A stretch of DNA of 64,000 nucleotides from an uncultured Candidatus Saccharibacteria bacterium (lineage in GTDB: Bacteria > Patescibacteriota > Minisyncoccia > 2-02-FULL-40-12 > GWA2-44-9): contig CAYTBY010000001.1 of NCBI GenBank assembly GCA_964436165.1, positions 73,452-137,451 of the forward strand, read 5' to 3'. The notes under the pieces are model-generated. The model did not search any database. It was given only the letters and a program-made list of their open reading frames with translations, and was not told the origin of the DNA. The position numbers and the translations under genes are program-made. Shown in pieces: positions 4,640 to 62,016 of this stretch (position 1 is the stretch's first letter; the number at the start of each line of letters is the position of its first letter).

Positions 4640-4869
4640 GCTAGGAGTTATGATATATCATAACAACTTGCGCCGCATGGGTTTAATAACTTTTCATGAA
4701 AACTACTAAAGTTAAAAATAAAAAAGAGAACAAAACCGATTGGAAATATTTTGATGATTGTCTGATCTGCAAAGCTATGGAAAAAGCTGATAAGCGGGGT
4801 AGAAATTTGTCTATGGAAGAATTAAAATCAGCATTTAAAGAACAGAATAAGAAAAATAATAAAACTTAA
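4640..4869 (+). repeat. Copy 1 of a duplicated module of about 230 bp (half-palindrome operator plus 57-aa CxxC gene); paralogous to 9380-9618
   Basis: About 85% nucleotide identity to 9380-9600, including gctaggagttatgatatatcataac, atgggtttaataa and the first approximately 90 nt of the small ORF. Confidence 0.7.
4696..4869 (+). CDS. Small lysine-rich CxxC protein (57 aa), hypothetical
   Basis: ORF MKTTKVKNKKENKTDWKYFDDCLICKAM... Its stop TAA directly abuts the ATG of the next gene (translational coupling). Paralog at 9436-9618. Confidence 0.5.
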   Translation: MKTTKVKNKKENKTDWKYFDDCLICKAMEKADKRGRNLSMEELKSAFKEQNKKNNKT

Positions 4870-9379: not shown

Positions 9380-9411
9380 GCTAGGAGTTATGATATATCA
9401 TAACTCCTAGC
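9380..9411. promoter_or_regulatory. Perfect 32-bp palindrome (putative operator) upstream of the small CxxC gene, copy 2
   Basis: gctaggagttatgatatatcataactcctagc equals its own reverse complement. Contains a tatgatat -10-like core. Only the left half is conserved in copy 1 (4640-4664). Confidence 0.55.
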
Positions 9412-29812: not shown

Positions 29813-30961
29813 TTGACTTCTATAACTAATAATGCTATTGTATGTGGAGGTACAATAGACTATCATAGGGTCATGTCAAATCAAGCAGTAATAACCAAAA
29901 CGGTCGCTTCTTTGGTAAAAAATATATCAACTCGCAACAAGGATATTATATCCAGGCGTTTTGGTTTGAAAACAGGCAAAAAGGAGACTCTGGAGTCGAT
30001 AGGCAAGAGCTATGGAATTACCAGGGAAAGAGTAAGGCAGATAGAGGAATTTTCCATTAACCAGTTGTCTAAGGTTGTTGCTTCGACTCCCGATGTTTCA
30101 AAATACGTTTCTTTGGCCAAGGAAATACTAGGCGGTAACGGGGGGGTGATGAGGGAGGCTGAGTTATTTAAAGCATTTAGCGGAAACGATAAGGAGAGTG
30201 TTGTAAATGCCTCGCTTGTTTTTATTCTTTCTCTGGCCGGCGAGCCTGCCTCGCCGACTCGCCTCGCCGAAGCCTCCGGCGTAGCGCGGGCAGGCGGGCC
30301 GGTAAGATTCGGTGAAAACGAGTCATACTATTCCTTCTGGGGTTTAAATAGGGAAAGTGCCGATATGTTTAAAAATGGGATTTCTGCCCTGGTCAGTTCA
30401 TTTGCAAAAAACGGAAGCCCGGTGGCTTATACCGACTTGGTTTCTTTTGCCCAGGCTAACAGCATCTCAAATTCTAAAGACGTTGTGGTTTATTTGAATT
30501 TGAGCAAGGAGCTTGGAAGAAATGTTTTTGGCCAAATTGGTTTAGCCAGTTGGGCCGAAGTAAAACCAAAAGGAGTCAGAGATAAAGCCTATTTGGTTTT
30601 GAAGAAAGAGAAAAATCCAAAACACTTTACCGAGATTGCCAAACTTATAAACTCAACCGGTTTTTCTGATAAGAGAGCTAATGTTCAGACTGTTCATAAC
30701 GAACTGATTAAGGATAAAAGATTCGTTTTAGTCGGCCGTGGAATGTATGGGTTATCGGAATGGGGTTATCAGCCGGGTACGGTCAAAGAAGTGTTGGTCA
30801 GCGTTCTCAAGAACCATGGCAAGCCCTTAGCCAAGGCCGAACTTGTGGCCAAGGTTTTGGATACCCGAATGGTCAAAGAAAACACAATATTATTAAATCT
30901 TCAGGATTCTAAAGTTTTTTCAAAACGGGAAGACGGAACTTACGTCTTAAAAAAGGCGTAA
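29813..30961 (+). CDS. Putative transcription factor: sigma-70 region-4-like HTH near the N-terminus plus C-terminal HARE-HTH-like domain
   Basis: TLESIGKSYGITRERVRQIEE is a sigma-70 region 4.2-type motif. C-terminal WGYQPGTVKEVLVSVLKNHGKPLAKAELVAKVL…FSKREDGTYVLKK is a HARE-HTH-like pattern. The probable start is ATG 29873. Confidence 0.45.
   Translation: MTSITNNAIVCGGTIDYHRVMSNQAVITKTVASLVKNISTRNKDIISRRFGLKTGKKETLESIGKSYGITRERVRQIEEFSINQLSKVVASTPDVSKYVSLAKEILGGNGGVMREAELFKAFSGNDKESVVNASLVFILSLAGEPASPTRLAEASGVARAGGPVRFGENESYYSFWGLNRESADMFKNGISALVSSFAKNGSPVAYTDLVSFAQANSISNSKDVVVYLNLSKELGRNVFGQIGLASWAEVKPKGVRDKAYLVLKKEKNPKHFTEIAKLINSTGFSDKRANVQTVHNELIKDKRFVLVGRGMYGLSEWGYQPGTVKEVLVSVLKNHGKPLAKAELVAKVLDTRMVKENTILLNLQDSKVFSKREDGTYVLKKA
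30233..30305 (+). repeat. GC-rich palindromic element inserted in frame in the 29813 gene (encodes LAGEPASPTRLAEASGVARAGGPV)
   Basis: ggccggcgagcctgcc…cgccgaagcctccggcg…ggcaggcgggccgg has nested inverted repeats. About 75% GC inside an approximately 38% GC gene. Confidence 0.5.
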
Positions 30962-37639: not shown

Positions 37640-37712
37640 TCCGCCCGGCTGGGATCGAACCAGCGACCACTTGCTTAAAAGGCAATTGCTCTACCAACTG
37701 AGCTACGGGCGG
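37640..37712 (-). tRNA. tRNA-Lys (anticodon UUU)
   Basis: Reverse complement ccgcccgTAgctcagttggtagagcAattgcCTTTTAAgcaagTggtcgctggttcgatcccagccgggcggA. 7-bp acceptor stem, D and T arms, anticodon loop cUUUUaa. CCA not encoded. Confidence 0.85.
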
Positions 37713-42271: not shown

Positions 42272-43714
42272 ATGCAGCGTAATAATATACTTGAGACTAA
42301 AGATCTTGTTGGAAAAGAAGTTCAGCTTTTTGGCTGGGTTAATGTCCGGCGTGACCACGGCAAAATAATTTTTATAGATTTGCGTGACCGTTCAGGCGTG
42401 GTTCAGGCTGTTTTTGGCCCCTGGACTCAAGGACTTTACGAAACTGCCAATCAACTTAGGAGTGAATGGGTGATTCGGATCAAAGGCAAAGTCAAAGAAC
42501 GTCCGGAAAAAATGGTTAATCCAGAGACCGAAACAGGAAAGATTGAAATTGAACCCTTGGAATTAGAAGTCTTGAACGAGGCTCTTACCCCGCCCTTTCC
42601 CTTGGATACTCCAGGTGATGATATTGACGAGGATGTGCGTCTCAAATTCCGCTATTTAGATTTGCGGAGGCCGCGACTTCAGAAAAATATAAAATTTCGT
42701 TCAGATTTTGTCGATAGAATAAGACAATTTTTATTTAAAAAAGGTTTTGTAGAGATAGAAACCCCGATCTTATCGGCTCCTACACCCGAAGGTTCAAGGG
42801 ATTTTGTTGTTCCTTCCAGGTTGAATCCAGGTAAATTTTTTGCCCTACCTCAAAGTCCTCAACAATATAAACAGCTTTTAATGGTTGCCGGTTTTGAAAA
42901 GTATTTTCAAATAGCCAGATGTTTCCGTGACGAAGACTTGAGAGCTGACAGAGGATTTGAGCATACCCAAGTTGATATTGAAGTAAGTTTTATAAATCAG
43001 GAGGAATTTATGGCTTTGGATGAGGAAATGATGATTACGGTAGTAGGGGGTATGGGTTATAAAATAAAACAAAAACCTTTCCCGGTCTTTACCTATAAAG
43101 AAGCAGTGGAAAAATTTGGAGCTGATAAATTTGATTTGCGAACTGAAGAAGATAAGGCGAATGGTGTTCTGGCCTATGCCTGGGTTAAAGATTTTCCATT
43201 TTTTGAAAAAGTGGATGCTGCGCACGAAGACAAAAGGAGCGAATCCTCCTTCGCCAAGGCTTCGGAGGACGATGGGAAGTGGACGTTTACTCACAATCCA
43301 TTTTCACACGCCAAACCGGAGCATGTCGATTGGTTATTAAAAGGAGAACATATTGGCGAAATACTCACAACTCAATATGATCTAGTTTGTAATGGATTTG
43401 AAGTTGGCGGAGGAAGTATTCGAGCTCACAAGCCGGAGATGCTTCATGCGGTGTTTAGGATAATGGGTTATGGCGAGAAAGAGATCGAAGAACAATTTGG
43501 TCATATGTTAGAGGCTTTCAAGTACGGTGCTCCGCCTCATGGCGGAATTGCTCATGGGATTGAAAGAAATTTGATGACCCTGACGGGTGAGTCATATTTG
43601 CGAGAAACTCAGGCCTTTCCCCAGACAAGTTCCGGCCGGACTTCAGTTATGGCTGCACCGAGTGAGCTAAGCAAAAAACAACTCAAGGAGCTCCATCTAA
43701 AGATAGAAAAGTAG
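42272..43714 (+). CDS. aspS: Aspartate--tRNA ligase (short archaeal/eukaryal-type, no GAD insertion)
   Basis: N-terminal OB fold. Class II motif FQIARCFRDEDLRADRGFEHTQVDIE matches the AspRS signature FRDED.RADRQ.EFTQ.D.E. Confidence 0.85.
   Translation: MQRNNILETKDLVGKEVQLFGWVNVRRDHGKIIFIDLRDRSGVVQAVFGPWTQGLYETANQLRSEWVIRIKGKVKERPEKMVNPETETGKIEIEPLELEVLNEALTPPFPLDTPGDDIDEDVRLKFRYLDLRRPRLQKNIKFRSDFVDRIRQFLFKKGFVEIETPILSAPTPEGSRDFVVPSRLNPGKFFALPQSPQQYKQLLMVAGFEKYFQIARCFRDEDLRADRGFEHTQVDIEVSFINQEEFMALDEEMMITVVGGMGYKIKQKPFPVFTYKEAVEKFGADKFDLRTEEDKANGVLAYAWVKDFPFFEKVDAAHEDKRSESSFAKASEDDGKWTFTHNPFSHAKPEHVDWLLKGEHIGEILTTQYDLVCNGFEVGGGSIRAHKPEMLHAVFRIMGYGEKEIEEQFGHMLEAFKYGAPPHGGIAHGIERNLMTLTGESYLRETQAFPQTSSGRTSVMAAPSELSKKQLKELHLKIEK
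43236..43268 (+). repeat. 30-nt palindromic repeat inserted in frame in aspS (encodes SSFAKASED); a second copy lies in the Mur ligase at 61529-61558
   Basis: tcctccttcgccaaggcttcggaggacg vs tcctctttcgcgcaaggcttcggaggacg: 27/29 identical, with TCCTCC/GGAGGA inverted arms. Confidence 0.55.
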
Positions 43715-51695: not shown

Positions 51696-53807
51696 TTATT
51701 TGTTTAGGGGGGCTAGATCACTCTTTATTTTTCTTATCTGCTCCCTTAGCGTCAAAGCTCTGTCGTACTCCATTTTTTTGGCGGCCCGTTCCATCATTTT
51801 GGTAAGTTGAGCGACAATCTTGCCTTTACTGCTATTACCAAAAACAAAAACCGTATCATCTTCTTCCTGGCCCCAACGACGAGTTTTACTAGTTCCATTA
51901 TTGGAAATCGGGAGGTCAAAATTACTAATTGATTTTTGAATGGTTGTTGGCGTAATGTCGTTGGCTTTATTGTGCTCTTCCTGTTTGGTTCTTCGGCGCA
52001 TGGTTTCGCCGATCGAAGCTTTAATTGATTTAGTCAACTTATCGGCATACATAATAACATGCCCGTTAACGTGTCTGGCCGCTCGGCCCATAGTTTGGAT
52101 TAGCGTCGTGGTATTGCGGAGGAATCCTTCTTTATCGGCGTCGAGGATGGCGATCAGTGAAACTTCAGGCAAATCCAAGCCTTCTCGCAAAAGATTTACT
52201 CCAACTAAGACATCATGGTGGCCCAGGCGGAAGTCCTTTAATATTTTTAATCGTTCAAGGGTTTTAATCTCAGAATGAATGTAGTTAACTTTTATTTTGG
52301 CATCGGCCAGATACTCCGATAAATCTTCGGCCATTCTCTTGGTTAAAGTGGTAACGATAACCCTTTCTTTATTCGCAGTCCGCTTTTTAATTTCTGAAAG
52401 CAGGTGTTCCATCTGATTTTTGCTAGGTTGTATTTCTATAGTCGGATCTAAGAGTCCTGTCGGCCGGATAAGCTGTTCGGCAATATTTGCTTTACCGGCC
52501 TTTTCAAGTTCATATATTCCGGGTGTGGCTGAAACATAAACTGTTTTCTGTATTCTTTTATTAAATTCTAAAAACTTTAACGGCCGGTTATCAAGGGCTG
52601 ACGGCAAGCGGAAACCGTAGTCAACTAGGGTGCTTTTTCTGGAATGATCCCCGTTAAACATTCCCCTGATCTGGGGAATAGAAATATGCGACTCGTCCAT
52701 AATGGTCAGGAATTCCCCCTTTGATCCGCCTTTGGCGGAAAAGAAATCAATCAGGGTATAGGGCGGTTCGCCAGGTTTGCGGAAATCAAGATGCCGCGAG
52801 TAGTTCTCAATGCCGTGGCAGTAGCCGGTTCGTTTCATCATGTCAATGTCGTACATTGTTTTTTCGTAAAGCCGGGCCGCTTCCTGGAGTTTTTTGGCTT
52901 TCTTTAAAACTTTCATTGTTTGCTGAAGTTCGCCTTTTATATTTTCTATAGCGATGGCAATTTTACTATCCGAAGTCAGCCAGTATTTTGCCGGTAGAAT
53001 TGTGGTTTCGACTATTTTTTCAAACTCAGGTTCTTTGGTTTCAAGTTCTTCCGGTTCAGAGATAGTGGCATGCATGACTTTGATCCCGTACGAAGTAGCC
53101 GCGCTGCGGTCCTTAGGACTCGCGACGAAGTCGCGAGCGCGACTTCGTACGGGATTATCCATGCTATTATTCGGAAACGTTATTTTAAAAATATTCTGGC
53201 CATCGGGGCCCATCAGTTCTATTTCATTTCTTGTTTTTCGGAAACATCCGCGCTTCAATTCTATATCTTGGGCATACTGGAGCCGTATCAATCCGCGGAT
53301 AAGTTCGTCCGGTTTTATTTTCTGGCCTTCAAATATGTTGAGGCCCATGTTTCTATATTCTTCCGGTGAGCCAAGGTTGTAGATGCAAGAAACAGAGGCG
53401 ACAATAATTACATCATCTCGTGACATTAAGGCTTGGGTTGTGGCATGGCGAAGCCGGTCAAGCTCCTCGTTTATTTTAGAATCTTTTTCGATGTAGGTGT
53501 CAGTGTGAGGTATGTAGGCTTCGGGCTGGTAGTAGTCGTAATATGAAACGAAATAATGGACGGCGTTGTGCGGGAAAAATTCTTTGAATTCTTTATATAA
53601 TTGGGCGGCGAGGGTCTTGTTGTGGGAAATAATCAGAGTTGGTTTCTGGTACTGCTCAATGACTTTAGCCATCGTAAACGTTTTTCCGCTTCCGGTTACA
53701 CCCAAAAGCACCTGGTGTTTTTTCCCGGACTTTAATCCCTTGGCGAGTTGTTGAATCGCCTGTGGCTGATCTCCTGTTGGCGAATATTTTGATATCAGTT
53801 TAAACAC
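51696..53807 (-). CDS. uvrB: Excinuclease ABC subunit B
   Basis: GVTGSGKTFTMAKVIE, YFVSYYDYYQPEAY, …GYCHGIENYSRHLD…; full length, about 45 aa longer than typical in domain 2. Confidence 0.9.
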   Translation of the reverse strand: MFKLISKYSPTGDQPQAIQQLAKGLKSGKKHQVLLGVTGSGKTFTMAKVIEQYQKPTLIISHNKTLAAQLYKEFKEFFPHNAVHYFVSYYDYYQPEAYIPHTDTYIEKDSKINEELDRLRHATTQALMSRDDVIIVASVSCIYNLGSPEEYRNMGLNIFEGQKIKPDELIRGLIRLQYAQDIELKRGCFRKTRNEIELMGPDGQNIFKITFPNNSMDNPVRSRARDFVASPKDRSAATSYGIKVMHATISEPEELETKEPEFEKIVETTILPAKYWLTSDSKIAIAIENIKGELQQTMKVLKKAKKLQEAARLYEKTMYDIDMMKRTGYCHGIENYSRHLDFRKPGEPPYTLIDFFSAKGGSKGEFLTIMDESHISIPQIRGMFNGDHSRKSTLVDYGFRLPSALDNRPLKFLEFNKRIQKTVYVSATPGIYELEKAGKANIAEQLIRPTGLLDPTIEIQPSKNQMEHLLSEIKKRTANKERVIVTTLTKRMAEDLSEYLADAKIKVNYIHSEIKTLERLKILKDFRLGHHDVLVGVNLLREGLDLPEVSLIAILDADKEGFLRNTTTLIQTMGRAARHVNGHVIMYADKLTKSIKASIGETMRRRTKQEEHNKANDITPTTIQKSISNFDLPISNNGTSKTRRWGQEEDDTVFVFGNSSKGKIVAQLTKMMERAAKKMEYDRALTLREQIRKIKSDLAPLNK
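53088..53153 (-). repeat. 66-bp GC-rich nested-palindrome element inserted in frame in uvrB (encodes VRSRARDFVASPKDRSAATSYG)
   Basis: cgtacgaagt…gtccttaggac…tcgcgacgaagtcgcga…acttcgtacg. Outer 10-bp inverted arms plus two internal perfect palindromes. About 68% GC inside an approximately 40% GC gene. Confidence 0.6.
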
Positions 53808-54810: not shown

Positions 54811-55827
54811 ATGAAATCATTCCTACAAACTAAAGAGTGGTTGGAGTTTCAGAAGGAAGTAGGCCACAAGACGTGGCGATTTTCGAATGGCCCTACTTCG
54901 CTAGGAAGCTTCGAAGGGCAAGGAAAAATAACGGCCAATATTATTAAACTGGGTTTGCCTTTGGGCAAGAGTTTTTTATATATACCTCATGGGCCGGAGA
55001 TTGATTTTAATAAGATTCAAAGCGGATTGAAAAATGAACTGGCGAATTTCGTAAAATATTTAAAGGACTTAGCTAAGGCGGAAAAAGCCATTTTTATAAA
55101 AATAGAACCTTTTTCGGACGTAGTCATTGAGCTTTTGCATGTCAAAGGAATGCGCCGGTCATCCAAACAAATCCAGCCGTATAAAACGGTGGTTCTTGAT
55201 TTAAGTTTACCTGAAGAGCATTTACTGGGGAAAATGCATGCTAAGACAAGGTATAATATTAAAGTTGCTGAGAACAACGGCATTGTTGTTAAGGACAGCA
55301 ACGATCTAGATACTTTTTGGAAATTATTAGGCAAGACGACAAAGCGTGATAGATTTGCCAGTCATCCTAAAGTTTATTATAAAAAACTGCTGGAGCATTT
55401 TCCCGCCGAAGGCGGATCCGCCTCTGGCGGAAATGATATGAAAGTCGATTTGGTTATGGCGTACCTGCCCGCCGGACAGGAGGGTCATAACGATCGGGCT
55501 GTGGCCGGAGCAATATTGATGACTTATGGTGATACCTGCTATTATCTTTACGGTGCTTCTGACTATGAGTACAGGTCGGTAATGGCCCCATATGCGCTTC
55601 ACTGGGAGAATATAAAGTATTTGAAAGGTCGAGGTATAAAATACTACGATTTTTGGGGGATTGATGCCCAGAAATGGCCAGGGGTGACGAGATTTAAACT
55701 TGGTTGGCTTGGCTCGCCGAAGTCAGACGAAGGCGGCGGGGGACTAAAAGAATATCCCGGTTCCTTTGATTTAGTTACCTCTAAATTTTGGTATTTTGTT
55801 TATAACATTGCCAGAAAAGTATTTTAG
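54811..55827 (+). CDS. FemAB-family peptidoglycan aminoacyltransferase-like protein
   Basis: N-terminus FLQTKEWLEFQKEVGHKTWRF resembles FemX/FemAB starts. Length and tandem GNAT-fold pattern are consistent. Contains a Gly-rich insert (GGSASGGND) over the DNA palindromes ccgccgaaggcgg/gcggatccgc. Confidence 0.5.
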   Translation: MKSFLQTKEWLEFQKEVGHKTWRFSNGPTSLGSFEGQGKITANIIKLGLPLGKSFLYIPHGPEIDFNKIQSGLKNELANFVKYLKDLAKAEKAIFIKIEPFSDVVIELLHVKGMRRSSKQIQPYKTVVLDLSLPEEHLLGKMHAKTRYNIKVAENNGIVVKDSNDLDTFWKLLGKTTKRDRFASHPKVYYKKLLEHFPAEGGSASGGNDMKVDLVMAYLPAGQEGHNDRAVAGAILMTYGDTCYYLYGASDYEYRSVMAPYALHWENIKYLKGRGIKYYDFWGIDAQKWPGVTRFKLGWLGSPKSDEGGGGLKEYPGSFDLVTSKFWYFVYNIARKVF

Positions 55828-60091: not shown

Positions 60092-60465
60092 ATAAAAAAA
60101 GCCCTCATCTATAGCTTCAAAAGCTAAAACTATAGATGAAGGCGGGAGAGATGAAACTCTCCCGTTGCTGGGGCGTTTAGGTCCCAGCTACCCACCGCCG
60201 GAAGGGTTGTTAACGCATAACCATCGCCACCTTTCTGATCGGCCGGACAAGCTATGAATGAGCTATCCGGGAAGCGCCCATTTGGCCTCGGCTTTTGGTA
60301 CTTGCTTATTTTTTAGGCGGACCTCTTGATCTGGCCACGTGAAATCCATTCGCGTAGCCCGTCCCGCGACATTGCGAGGACCGGGAATGTTGAGCCAGTC
60401 GGGGCTCAGAAAAGGTCTCTTCTGCTTATAGCAGTTTCGTGAGACCTTTTCTGAGCCTCTATTTG
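60092..60465 (-). ncRNA. Candidate structured non-coding RNA of about 375 nt (identity unresolved)
   Basis: No ORF of at least 60 codons. 17-bp perfect stem ggctcagaaaaggtctc/gagaccttttctgagcc with a nested ctgc-ttata-gcag. Further perfect hairpins: cgggagag/ctctcccg, gctggg/cccagc, gtcc…ggac. At the low-coordinate end, a hairpin plus U-run that is a terminator only on the minus strand. Confidence 0.3.
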
Positions 60466-60558
60466 TATCACAGGAAATTGACGTTATTTAAAGTATACCA
60501 TACTACATATTATCTGTCAATAGCTAAAATGGCCCAGAATATGCTATAAATTAAGTAA

Positions 60559-62016
60559 ATGCTCAAAGAAAGTAGTTTAGACAAAATACTTTATAGAGTC
60601 AAGAAGCTGATTCCGGGATCAGTTTTTAATTTTTTTCAGCCGTATTATCACGCTGTCTTAGCTTATGCCGGTGCGGCTTTTTACGGTTTTCCGTCAAGAA
60701 AATTAAAAGTTATTGGTGTGACCGGAACAAAAGGCAAGTCAACCGTTGTTTATCTGGCTTCTAAATTATTAGAAGCCAGGCTTCAAGGTGGACAGAAGCC
60801 TGGCTTCGGGAAGAGTGGAGTCGCCGCTTGCGGTTCCCTTGGTTTTAAAATAAAGAGTAAGGAATGGCCAAATACTTTAAAAATGACTATGCCCGGCCGG
60901 TTTCGTCTGCAGAAACTCATGGCCGAAGCGGTTAGGGCCGGCTGTGAATACTTTATTCTTGAAGTTACCTCCGAGGGCATCAAACAGAAAAGGCATTTGG
61001 GTATTTGGTTTGATTGCGCCGTTTTTACCAATCTTCACAAAGAACATATTGAAAGCCACGGTTCATTCGAGAATTATTATCAGGCCAAGCAGGAATTATT
61101 CAGGCGGACAAAAAATATCCATGTTATCAATGCCGATGACCAGTATACCAAATTATTAGGTGATTTTCCGGCTGAACATAAAATATTTTACGGTTTTACC
61201 AAAGGTGACTTGGTTGCCGGTAATTTAAAACTTTCTGATCTCGGTTCTTCTTTTGAGGTTTATGGTACGACTTATAATATCCACCTGGCCGGGAAGTTTA
61301 ATATTTTAAATTGTCTGGCTGTTTTATCGATCGGCGCGATGTATGGCATAGATCTGCCCTCGGCAAAACATATACTAGAATCAGTCAAATTTATCCCTGG
61401 CAGAATGGAGTTTATCCCTGCCTTCGTTAAAACTTCGGCGGGCGAGCAAAAAGAACCGTTCAAGGTGGTGGTGGATTATGCACATACACCCGAGTCGTTA
61501 CGAAGTGTTTATGAAACGTTAAAAAATAGTCCTCTTTCGCGCAAGGCTTCGGAGGACGCCCAAAATACAAAACGTAAGCTTATATGTATTTTGGGCGCTG
61601 CCGGGGGCGGGAGGGACAAGTGGAAGAGGCCGGAGTTTGGGAGAATAGCGGCGCAGTACTGTGATGAAATAATTCTGACGAATGAAGACCCCTATGAAGA
61701 AAACCCAGAAGCAATTCTGGAAGAAATTGCTTCTGGGTTTTCGCAAGCGCCAAATCACAAATCATCCCGATTTTATCGAGGATCCTCGATTGCAAAGCAA
61801 TCGGGACAAATCACAAATAAATCCCAAGCTCCAAATGTCCAAAAAATTATGGATAGAAAAGAAGCCATAAAGAAGGCCTTGACTTTAGCTCAAGAGGGTG
61901 ATACTGTAATCATCACGGGCAAAGGTTCGGAGACTTCAATGGCCGTATCGGGGAATAGGAAAATTCCCTGGTCGGACAAGGGAGTTATTGAGGAGTTTTT
62001 GACGACGAAATACTGA
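60559..62016 (+). CDS. Mur ligase family protein (MurE-like)
   Basis: VIGVTGTKGKSTV (P-loop), …DYAHTPESL…; carries two in-frame repeat insertions (61529-61558 and 61751-61818). Confidence 0.7.
   Translation: MLKESSLDKILYRVKKLIPGSVFNFFQPYYHAVLAYAGAAFYGFPSRKLKVIGVTGTKGKSTVVYLASKLLEARLQGGQKPGFGKSGVAACGSLGFKIKSKEWPNTLKMTMPGRFRLQKLMAEAVRAGCEYFILEVTSEGIKQKRHLGIWFDCAVFTNLHKEHIESHGSFENYYQAKQELFRRTKNIHVINADDQYTKLLGDFPAEHKIFYGFTKGDLVAGNLKLSDLGSSFEVYGTTYNIHLAGKFNILNCLAVLSIGAMYGIDLPSAKHILESVKFIPGRMEFIPAFVKTSAGEQKEPFKVVVDYAHTPESLRSVYETLKNSPLSRKASEDAQNTKRKLICILGAAGGGRDKWKRPEFGRIAAQYCDEIILTNEDPYEENPEAILEEIASGFSQAPNHKSSRFYRGSSIAKQSGQITNKSQAPNVQKIMDRKEAIKKALTLAQEGDTVIITGKGSETSMAVSGNRKIPWSDKGVIEEFLTTKY
61751..61818 (+). 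mobile_element. MITE-like element inserted in frame in the Mur ligase gene: 12-bp direct repeats flanking a 40-bp palindromic core
   Basis: caaatcacaaat | cat-cccgatt-ttATCGAGGATCCTCGATtgcaaagc-aatcggg-a | caaatcacaaat. Encodes HKSSRFYRGSSIAKQSGQITNK between duplicated SQAPN. Confidence 0.6.

Follow-up and report, generated by a model that had tools for sequence, protein, structure and literature searches.

Here we describe a 71-nt palindromic element inside the uvrB gene of an uncultured bacterium, found in a 64-kb stretch of DNA (contig CAYTBY010000001.1, positions 73,452 to 137,451; hereafter the window), the host of which was placed as a relative of the Yanofskybacteria, class Paceibacteria. 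[quoted passage not shown] The element has a defined anatomy with terminal inverted repeats, and its copies are dispersed. Target duplications are seen, also in one pair of empty and filled sites, the insert in UvrB is lineage-specific, the copies inside genes preserve the reading frame, and near-identical copies occur within one genome. A sequence-only reading of this DNA had likened the segment to the Rickettsia palindromic elements (RPEs), and this interpretation was supported overall by our results.

Structure of the element in uvrB

The features of the locus are as follows (positions are those of the window; where no strand is named, the feature is given without one).

51696..53807, minus strand: host gene uvrB, 703 aa with a GTG start (list of open reading frames (ORFs), homologues and PDB UvrB matches).
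53084..53154, minus strand: 71-nt palindromic element, TCCCGTACGAAGT...ACTTCGTACGGGA (family alignment, covariance model R1 and folds).
53082..53156, minus strand: 25 inserted codons, NPVRSRARDFVASPKDRSAATSYGI, UvrB residues 218-242, between strands FKITF and KVMHA of domain 2; a gap in relatives.
53084..53096: 13-nt terminal inverted repeat (plus strand TCCCGTACGAAGT); 99.7% of its cells in 25 aligned copies pair with the opposite repeat, and the search pattern dictated repeat positions 2-12.
53142..53154: 13-nt terminal inverted repeat (plus strand ACTTCGTACGGGA); perfect complement of 53084..53096.
53100..53104: 5' half of the middle stem (plus strand), CGCGC, 5 bp, pairing with GCGCG at 53137-53141 (folds).
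53137..53141: 3' half of the middle stem, GCGCG (folds and family alignment).
53109..53119: inner hairpin GTCC-TTA-GGAC (GTCCTTAGGAC); helix 4, 100% paired, the loop of which is different in almost all copies.
53120..53136: inner hairpin TCGCGAC-GAA-GTCGCGA (TCGCGACGAAGTCGCGA); helix 3, the most variable stem of the family, with 6 of 9 pairs changed on both sides.
53080..53083: decayed copy of the target-site duplication, TTGA on the plus strand and TCAA in gene orientation; in L002, another uvrB locus that carries the element, TCAA is still present at the other flank.
53155..53158: decayed copy of the target-site duplication, TTAT on the plus strand and ATAA in gene orientation; 2 of 4 positions match its partner.

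The orientation of the element that we call A corresponds to the sense strand of uvrB, and the family covariance model R1 gave the uvrB copy 95 bits on the minus strand (E = 5e-18) compared with 37 bits on the plus strand. The overall fold is Y-shaped and consists of an outer stem of 13-14 bp, a 3-nt bulge (AGC, 53097-53099, plus strand), a 5-bp middle stem, a junction (TGCG, 53105-53108, plus strand) and two hairpins. In the window, the arms form a perfect 14-nt complement (ATCCCGTACGAAGT / ACTTCGTACGGGAT, 53083-53096 and 53142-53155), which extends to 17 nt at 94%. Folding of the element region, a check that the sequence-only reading had proposed, showed a stability beyond that of shuffled sequences both as RNA (-44.9 kcal/mol, z = -4.7, equalled by 0 of 200 shuffles) and as DNA (-30.7 kcal/mol, z = -6.8, unmatched by any shuffle). 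When the whole 64 kb was scanned in 80-nt windows with 10-nt steps, the element gave the most stable fold, at -48.3 kcal/mol against a mean of -14.9 (sd 5.6). Nothing in Rfam 15 matched the element at E values up to 10, and the sole match at gathering score in the window was a tRNA at 37640-37712.

The palindromic motifs noted in the sequence-only reading are all present, although its start was one base off, and its arms (cgtacgaagt/acttcgtacg, at 53087 and 53142) were too short at 10 nt, as the repeats of the element measure 13 nt and the perfect complement in the window 14 nt. It had correctly recognized a GC-rich segment in a less GC-rich gene, but its figure of 68% was too high, since we measured 65% for 53088-53153 compared with 43% for uvrB and 42% for the window. 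The segment also reads through in frame (minus-strand frame ...DNPVRSRARDFVASPKDRSAATSYGIK...), and the 22 residues it had named are encoded by 53085-53150; the inserted unit, however, is not 22 but 25 codons, composed of the 71 nt and a 4-nt duplication. As TCAA is kept on one side of the element in L002 and on the other side in the window, an ancestral TCAA duplication is suggested.

Distribution and conservation of the family

We scanned species-representative genomes, metagenome contigs and viral contigs with the pattern CCGTACRAAGT-N35-60-ACTTYGTACGG. The species-representative genomes gave 41 copies at 40 loci, where about 3-4 chance matches were expected by our own estimate. The titles of 38 of the 40 loci name Patescibacteria lineages (Yanofskybacteria, Zambryskibacteria, Nomurabacteria, Paceibacterota, "Patescibacteria group" and metagenome-assembled genomes (MAGs) labelled Saccharibacteria), and the remaining 2 name only a "bacterium". 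At least 120 further stretches were found in the metagenome contigs, and the viral contigs scanned with this pattern gave zero matches. Copies elsewhere, as the sequence-only reading had anticipated, were thus confirmed, with the same termini in at least 172 copies from Patescibacteria genomes and metagenomes and at least 127 after merging identical ones. The counts of interiors, flanks, start codons and reading frames given below are those among the matches listed.

Among the non-redundant copies, 77 had the canonical GC-rich interior, 7 another GC-rich interior and 43 an AT-rich interior, the last class being mostly 75 nt long between the same ends. The distance between the arms ranged from 58 to 81 nt, with longer variants of about 110-125 nt, and solo arms were either degenerate or parts of these longer variants. 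Two of the longer variants (L038 322-433, about 112 nt, and L020 7102-7225, about 125 nt) have the same ends, TTCA or TGAA duplications and unrelated AT-rich interiors; it is possible that they are remnants of a larger parent element. In the MAG H41-bin087_1 (L010 2390-2600, L020, L026, L035 and L043), we observed five near-identical copies with an AT-rich interior, each nested in a degenerate element of the same family and located between type IV pilin-like genes of a repeated cluster.

When the canonical copies were oriented by their interior, the flank consensus was A-TGAA-[TCCCGTACGAAGT ... ACTTCGTACGGGA]-TGAA, with element ends TCCCG...CGGGA. The 4-nt duplication was perfect in 43 of 75 canonical copies and matched at 3 of 4 positions in 14 more, and it varied with the site (TGAA, TGGA, TGAG, TTCA, TCAA, TTAA, TAAA and others). 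With the strict pattern, each genome contained 1-5 copies. The MAG CAYZNJ harbors three copies at three unrelated loci that differ at only 1-3 of 67 nt, compared with a mean of 10.6 differences between copies of different genomes, of which only 0.9% of pairs differ at two positions or fewer. It suggests that the element has moved recently within a genome. Taken together, the family is small and without a gene of its own, carries terminal inverted repeats, is flanked by a duplication of fixed 4-nt length, and has dispersed and recently moved copies, which are the features of MITEs.

The secondary structure is well conserved. In the 25 aligned copies, 98.6% of cells were paired, compared with 27-46% in slid controls, 11 of the 13 outer pairs being fixed by the search pattern. 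Nine pairs showed changes on both sides, a covariation reached in 0 of 500 shuffles, a statistic that is inflated by the kinship of the copies. One pair of the middle stem (columns 15/62) covaries among copies as G-C, U-A and U-G, and the outermost pair, which lies outside the search pattern, is U-A in 22 of 25 copies and C-G in 3 of 25. Most stem positions are invariant, and the loops differ in almost every copy. G-U wobble pairs favored the strand that reads PVRS... by 41 to 7, mostly through one alignment column. The constant stems set against the saturated loops in these alignments indicate a constraint at the nucleic-acid level.

Insertion history in uvrB

The UvrB homologues found at E = 0 are annotated as excinuclease ABC subunit B, mostly from Candidatus Yanofskybacteria and otherwise from other Patescibacteria, and the best PDB UvrB match had an E value of 1e-223. 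HMMER aligned residues 2-200 and 268-696 to the UvrB of B. caldotenax (2fdc_A), and the insert falls in the unaligned part. The earlier estimate that domain 2 is about 30-45 aa longer here proved right, as residues 201-267 of the query correspond to residues 205-240 of 2fdc_A, leaving about 31 extra residues, of which 25 come from the element. The net gain in the gene is 75 nt, that is, 71 nt plus the decayed 4-bp duplication. Length matching with insert-free relatives would put the insertion point at the turn at about F216-D219 of B. caldotenax UvrB, which we take to belong to domain 2, the UvrA-binding domain. The AlphaFold model of UvrB, built from a 40-sequence alignment, was too poor to use (mean pLDDT 52.6, pTM 0.37); residues 212-242 had a pLDDT below 50, like much of the rest.

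In the alignment of 40 homologues, the loop between FKITF and I.KIMHA contains from 0 to 42 extra residues. The inserted residues are lineage-specific, as the sequence-only reading had expected, since the closest relative (P0002, 90-93% aa and 82% nt identity) has none of them. P0007 carries the insert at the site of the window and in the same orientation (NPVRSRARDRVASPKDRGAATSYG). In P0008 and P0009, the sequence FIPY(K/E)VASPRSQGLATKSRARLRTG lies a few codons off in the same loop, and its DNA is the same element in the opposite orientation. These two positions among relatives indicate that the loop has been struck at two sites. At the second site, the empty locus L166 (P0005) reads AGA-TTCA-CT and the filled locus L001 reads AAA-TTCA-[71 nt]-TTTA-CT, which corresponds to a 71-nt insertion plus a 4-nt duplication, with a synonymous C-to-T change in one duplicate.

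In the uvrB tree, the gene of the window stands next to the empty L004 (82% nt identity), and the other carrier at this site, L002, is at 76%. Likewise, the filled L001 stands next to the empty L166 (86%), and the other carrier, L003, is at 78%. The elements themselves are more alike than this. Those of the window and L002 differ at 5 of 71 positions, all unpaired, where the genes are 76-77% identical, and those of L001 and L003 show a single difference. Two non-orthologous copies, L012 and L039, resemble the window copy just as much as its orthologue does. The insertion in uvrB recurs in independent ENA, NCBI and JGI assemblies, and this agreement rules out an assembly artefact.

Many relatives carry another insert of about 17 aa, GPIYS..SAKNK(F/Y)TPSEG. 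We considered it as a decayed older copy and rejected this, since its local alignment to the element consensus was no better than that of shuffles (p = 0.37-0.98). L002 has a second copy of the family (74 bits) at 423-497, about 1.3 kb upstream of uvrB near ruvA-side genes. In addition, the UvrB relative P0036 is 1222 aa long with intein and LAGLIDADG Pfam matches, and uvrB is therefore intein-invaded in some relatives.

Copies within genes and on start codons

Twenty canonical copies lie inside long ORFs, 13 in sense and 7 in antisense orientation, and all of them preserve the reading frame. As the classification of a copy as internal presupposes an open frame, a separate non-circular test was made by removing the element and one repeat in silico. 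After removal, a long ORF spanned the site in 17 of the 67 copies with a net length that is a multiple of three, compared with 0-1 of the 58 frame-breaking copies (Fisher p = 9e-6 to 1.6e-4). Frame-breaking and stop-containing variants are thus kept out of genes, and this fits translation of the insert rather than its splicing out. The canonical element is also open to translation in general, as five of its six frames are free of stops in 73-94% of copies compared with about 54% of shuffles. The consensus of the family peptide is PVRSLARxxxASPKDLGGATSYG. A search of the protein database with a 46-aa concatenate of the peptide gave 4 candidates, but the query was too weak, missing UvrB itself.

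Another large group of copies is located on start codons. Of the 77 canonical copies, 41 sit immediately 5' of an ATG with an open frame of 60 codons or more, all with the same element strand, and at most 4 candidates were found in the opposite orientation. As a control, only 7% of the TGAA sites in the window fit the same start definition (p = 7e-27). The ATG arises where the terminal A of the element meets the TG of the target duplicate. In 31 of 40 start-codon copies, a further ATG is retained upstream of the element, and since the 75-nt unit keeps this ATG in frame, the protein would either gain 25 N-terminal residues or start at the regenerated ATG. In the AT-rich class, 21 of 43 copies abut a start, and many of them have stops in all frames, so that the downstream ATG must be used there. 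In the relevant frame, the canonical element can be read through in either orientation, and stop codons therefore do not account for the orientation bias.

A Shine-Dalgarno-like tetramer lies no more than 20 nt from the start in only 7 of 31 genes in the window, such motifs being rare in these genomes, and TATAAT-like boxes are found 5-9 nt before many ATGs (e.g. 9934, 11513, 16017, 42272, 57112 and 60559). These features are suggestive of leaderless or short-leader mRNAs. Sense-oriented occupation of start codons is an unusual and statistically solid trait of the family, and it may reflect either target choice or the survival of harmless insertions. An orientation-specific TAACTT at the right end was considered as an outward -10 promoter, and this idea was dropped because the GC-rich class has CTACTT there.

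In two genomes, L034 (1724-1794) and L040 (7183-7257), a sugar-transferase-like gene (MKKADLFFNV...) carries the element at one and the same start codon. One inner hairpin is wholly different in sequence and length between the two (a 7-bp and a 9-bp stem) and is perfect in both.

Proposed mechanism and alternative explanations

We propose that the element enters TNNA sites, TGAA being favored among them, and duplicates 4 bp of the target, so that each insertion adds a net 75 nt or 25 codons. In uvrB, it would have landed on TCAA in the turn of a beta-hairpin in domain 2, and it would be transcribed and translated together with uvrB to give a hydrophilic surface loop of 25 residues, which is presumably tolerated. 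Mobilisation probably takes place in trans by a DDE-type transposase that recognizes the inverted repeats.

Several observations weigh against this proposal. No transposase gene, and hence no such partner, was found between the same inverted repeats in 1.2 Mb of fetched sequence. The two long pairs of repeat-like 12-mers, in L022 and L093, surround housekeeping genes and were rejected as chance; between those of L093 lie pilin-like genes and an NAD-ligase-like gene. The duplication of the window copy has decayed (ATAA/TCAA), and the mechanism of this particular insertion would lean on the evidence of the family. Translation of the uvrB insert is likewise presumed from the frame pattern, and the proposal is weaker at this point. 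Beside the search-fixed outer pairs and the kinship of the copies mentioned above, hairpin-templated (quasipalindrome) correction can yield apparently compensatory changes without selection. Near-invariant stems across distant genomes together with saturated loops go beyond simple selfish spread alone. Finally, the presence and absence of the insert conflicts with the uvrB gene tree, a pattern that requires several insertions at one site, precise loss or loop exchange. Considering this conflict and the similarities of the elements, three scenarios stand side by side, namely an old insertion with constraint and precise loss, repeated insertion at a hot spot, and exchange of the loop.

One alternative is that the family is primarily a cis-acting module used by the host, for example a 5' mRNA structure for stability or initiation, which spread by transposition and of which the uvrB copy is a stray and tolerated one. 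The single-strand occupation of ATG codons by 41 of 77 canonical copies (at most 4 opposite, over a 7% TGAA background) and the 21 of 43 AT-rich copies at starts, many of them stop-laden, would agree with such a role. So would an orientation bias that is not due to stop codons, the wobble pairs falling on the same strand as the start-codon mRNAs (41 vs 7), the conserved stems with free loops, and the scarcity of Shine-Dalgarno sequences with TATAAT-like boxes 5-9 nt before the ATG. On the other hand, the genes concerned are unrelated housekeeping genes, with N-termini that look by eye like rplC, pgk, dnaA, ftsX, aminoacyl-tRNA synthetase and sugar transferase genes. Copies are present or absent between close relatives, the internal ones are found in both orientations (13 sense and 7 antisense), and target duplications mark them as insertions. 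Furthermore, the wobble asymmetry comes mostly from one alignment column, and selection against disruptive insertions alone could enrich start sites. We therefore consider this explanation rather unlikely. A related idea is somewhat less unlikely, though its probability is still low. The family could be more than a parasite, namely a transposable start-codon cassette. In one orientation, it would target or persist at ATG codons of genes with leaderless or short-leader mRNAs, its last base regenerating the start and its conserved Y-structure at the mRNA 5' end altering stability or initiation. It would then be a mobile cis-regulatory module in organisms that mostly do without Shine-Dalgarno-led initiation. 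If so, the stem conservation and the 41 sense versus at most 4 antisense copies at starts would reflect a function at the RNA level.

It could also be argued that the element is of the repetitive extragenic palindrome (REP/BIME) type or derived from IS200/IS605 (PATE-like), moving as single-stranded hairpin DNA by a tyrosine HUH transposase (RAYT/TnpA) and not by a DDE enzyme. Hairpins with compensatory changes, strand-asymmetric wobble pairs and a right flank that is more conserved than the left would be in line with this. The same holds for the GTAG before the middle stem on the plus strand (AAGTAGCC), as GTAG-tagged REP superfamilies are described in PMC3733652. However, the element has perfect 13-bp terminal inverted repeats and a site-dependent 4-nt direct repeat without mismatch in 43 of 75 copies, and a true duplication is evident in one pair of empty and filled sites. 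Y1 transposases are not known to duplicate the fixed target beside which they insert. The element is moreover intragenic and not confined to the extragenic space, and no RAYT-like gene was noticed beside any copy, although no systematic search was made. This origin appears improbable to us. Even less probable is an intron-like insert that is removed from the mRNA and leaves the UvrB protein unchanged. In its favor, the stems of resident copies are far better conserved than the surrounding loop and the synonymous sites of the host gene. Between the window and L002, 66 of 71 element positions are identical, compared with 76-77% for the gene, and all five differences are unpaired. Excision, however, would allow any length or stop codon, yet only 0-1 of 58 frame-breaking copies are found in genes against 17 of 67 frame-preserving ones. 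In addition, Rfam gave no match up to E = 10, a ribozyme-like core was not evident in the element, and the similarity of the non-orthologous L012 and L039 to the window copy equals that of the ortholog. Lastly, hairpin-templated duplication or slippage within a variable loop could have produced, locally and without mobility, the other short GC-rich palindromic in-frame inserts of the window, which lie outside the family. For the uvrB element, such an origin is refuted because at least 127 non-redundant copies share its termini and are spread over unrelated loci of many genomes, and we give it practically no weight.

Comparison with known elements

RPEs are palindromic dispersed non-coding repeats, often located in unrelated housekeeping genes, where they encode a conserved peptide in frame that is apparently tolerated in surface regions (PMC10969869, which gives a size of about 150 bp). 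They measure about 100-150 bp and are not known outside Rickettsia, a genus of the Alphaproteobacteria. The MITE-like element described here agrees with that description in being palindromic, dispersed and in frame within unrelated protein genes, with a conserved peptide, and the likeness drawn by the sequence-only reading holds to this extent. Membership of any RPE family, however, was not shown. The element is set apart by its host phylum and by its size of 71 bp, about half that of RPEs; RPE consensus sequences were not among the comparisons. It also differs from classic descriptions of RPEs in its sharp 13-bp terminal inverted repeats with a 4-bp duplication, and in that about half of its copies are on start codons.

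Among bacterial MITEs (Correia elements of Neisseria, ERIC/IRU, RUP, QMITE1 of Coxiella and the Anabaena MITEs), the small size, lack of a transposase, inverted repeats, short duplication, multiple dispersed copies and strong RNA/DNA hairpin are shared with our element. The Correia elements duplicate TA and are mostly intergenic. Occasional in-frame fusions of MITEs with host ORFs have been reported (PMC10969869; PMC5896051). In contrast to these MITEs, the present element, for which no cognate insertion sequence was found in 1.2 Mb of flanking loci, stands with 71 bp at the small end of their range. Its unit of 71 + 4 = 75 nt makes up whole codons with five of six frames open, and its terminal A together with the TG.. 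of the duplication regenerates ATG at starts. The REP/BIME sequences share the GC-rich hairpins, the conserved structure and the GTAG beside a stem. REPs are described, in part in PMC3733652, as single hairpins of 20-40 nt, extragenic, high in copy number and without terminal inverted repeats or duplications. The element, with its intragenic or start-codon locations, 1-5 copies per genome by the strict pattern, inverted repeats and duplication, differs from REPs in these respects.

Within the full-text library that we searched, nothing relevant was found on MITE- or RPE-like elements in the Candidate Phyla Radiation (CPR), Patescibacteria or Parcubacteria, and the family is apparently new and undescribed. 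The genomes of these bacteria are very small, and the finding indicates that a selfish palindromic repeat can persist there. This persistence is achieved by a coding-compatible design, with whole codons, almost no stops and a start-regenerating end. The family explains a part of the odd GC-rich loops and N-terminal extensions in predicted CPR proteins, and it is relevant to CPR annotation, start-site calling, structure prediction and protein alignment. It represents a second independent case of the RPE phenomenon, in which clear repeats and duplications make the mechanism more tractable. Through the association with start codons, it could also become possible to test directly how these uncultured bacteria initiate translation.

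Other repeats in the window

The sequence-only reading had regarded other in-frame elements of the window as members of the same family. Model R1 detected only the uvrB copy (95 bits; next match E = 0.23) and, with filters off, no second copy in the 64 kb, the other matches being generic hairpins at E values of at least 0.23. Short GC-rich in-frame inserts in other genes are nevertheless a real pattern, with sequences different from the uvrB element. The FemAB-like gene at 54811-55827 has three or four short GC-rich and partly palindromic in-frame inserts (about 55395-55425, 55470-55490 and 55710-55740). These encode PAEGGSASGG, LPAGQEG and LGSPKSDEG, are absent from the homologues adjacent to uvrB in L001, L003 and L004, and are unmatched by R1.

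The 75% GC segment at 30231-30310 (LAGEPASPTRLAEASGVARAGGPVRF) in the ORF 29813-30961 ranks second in stability among the 80-nt folds of the window (-46.9 kcal/mol), and it may likewise have been inserted. At 60391-60470, just upstream of the ORF 60559-62016, a perfect inverted repeat of 17 bp (GGCTCAGAAAAGGTCTC / GAGACCTTTTCTGAGCC) forms a hairpin of -41.8 kcal/mol and has no Rfam match. The 16-nt arm GCTAGGAGTTATGATA occurs twice in a back-to-back palindrome, with perfect complementarity at 9380-9411 and with 81% at 4640-4671. A small in-frame repeat, CCTCCTTCGCNRARGCTTC, is present at 119-137 in a SecA-like ORF and at 43245-43263 in the ORF 42272-43714, that is, two copies in the window compared with 0.03 expected by chance, and also in L108 (7579-7597); it encodes PSFAEAS or SSFAKAS.

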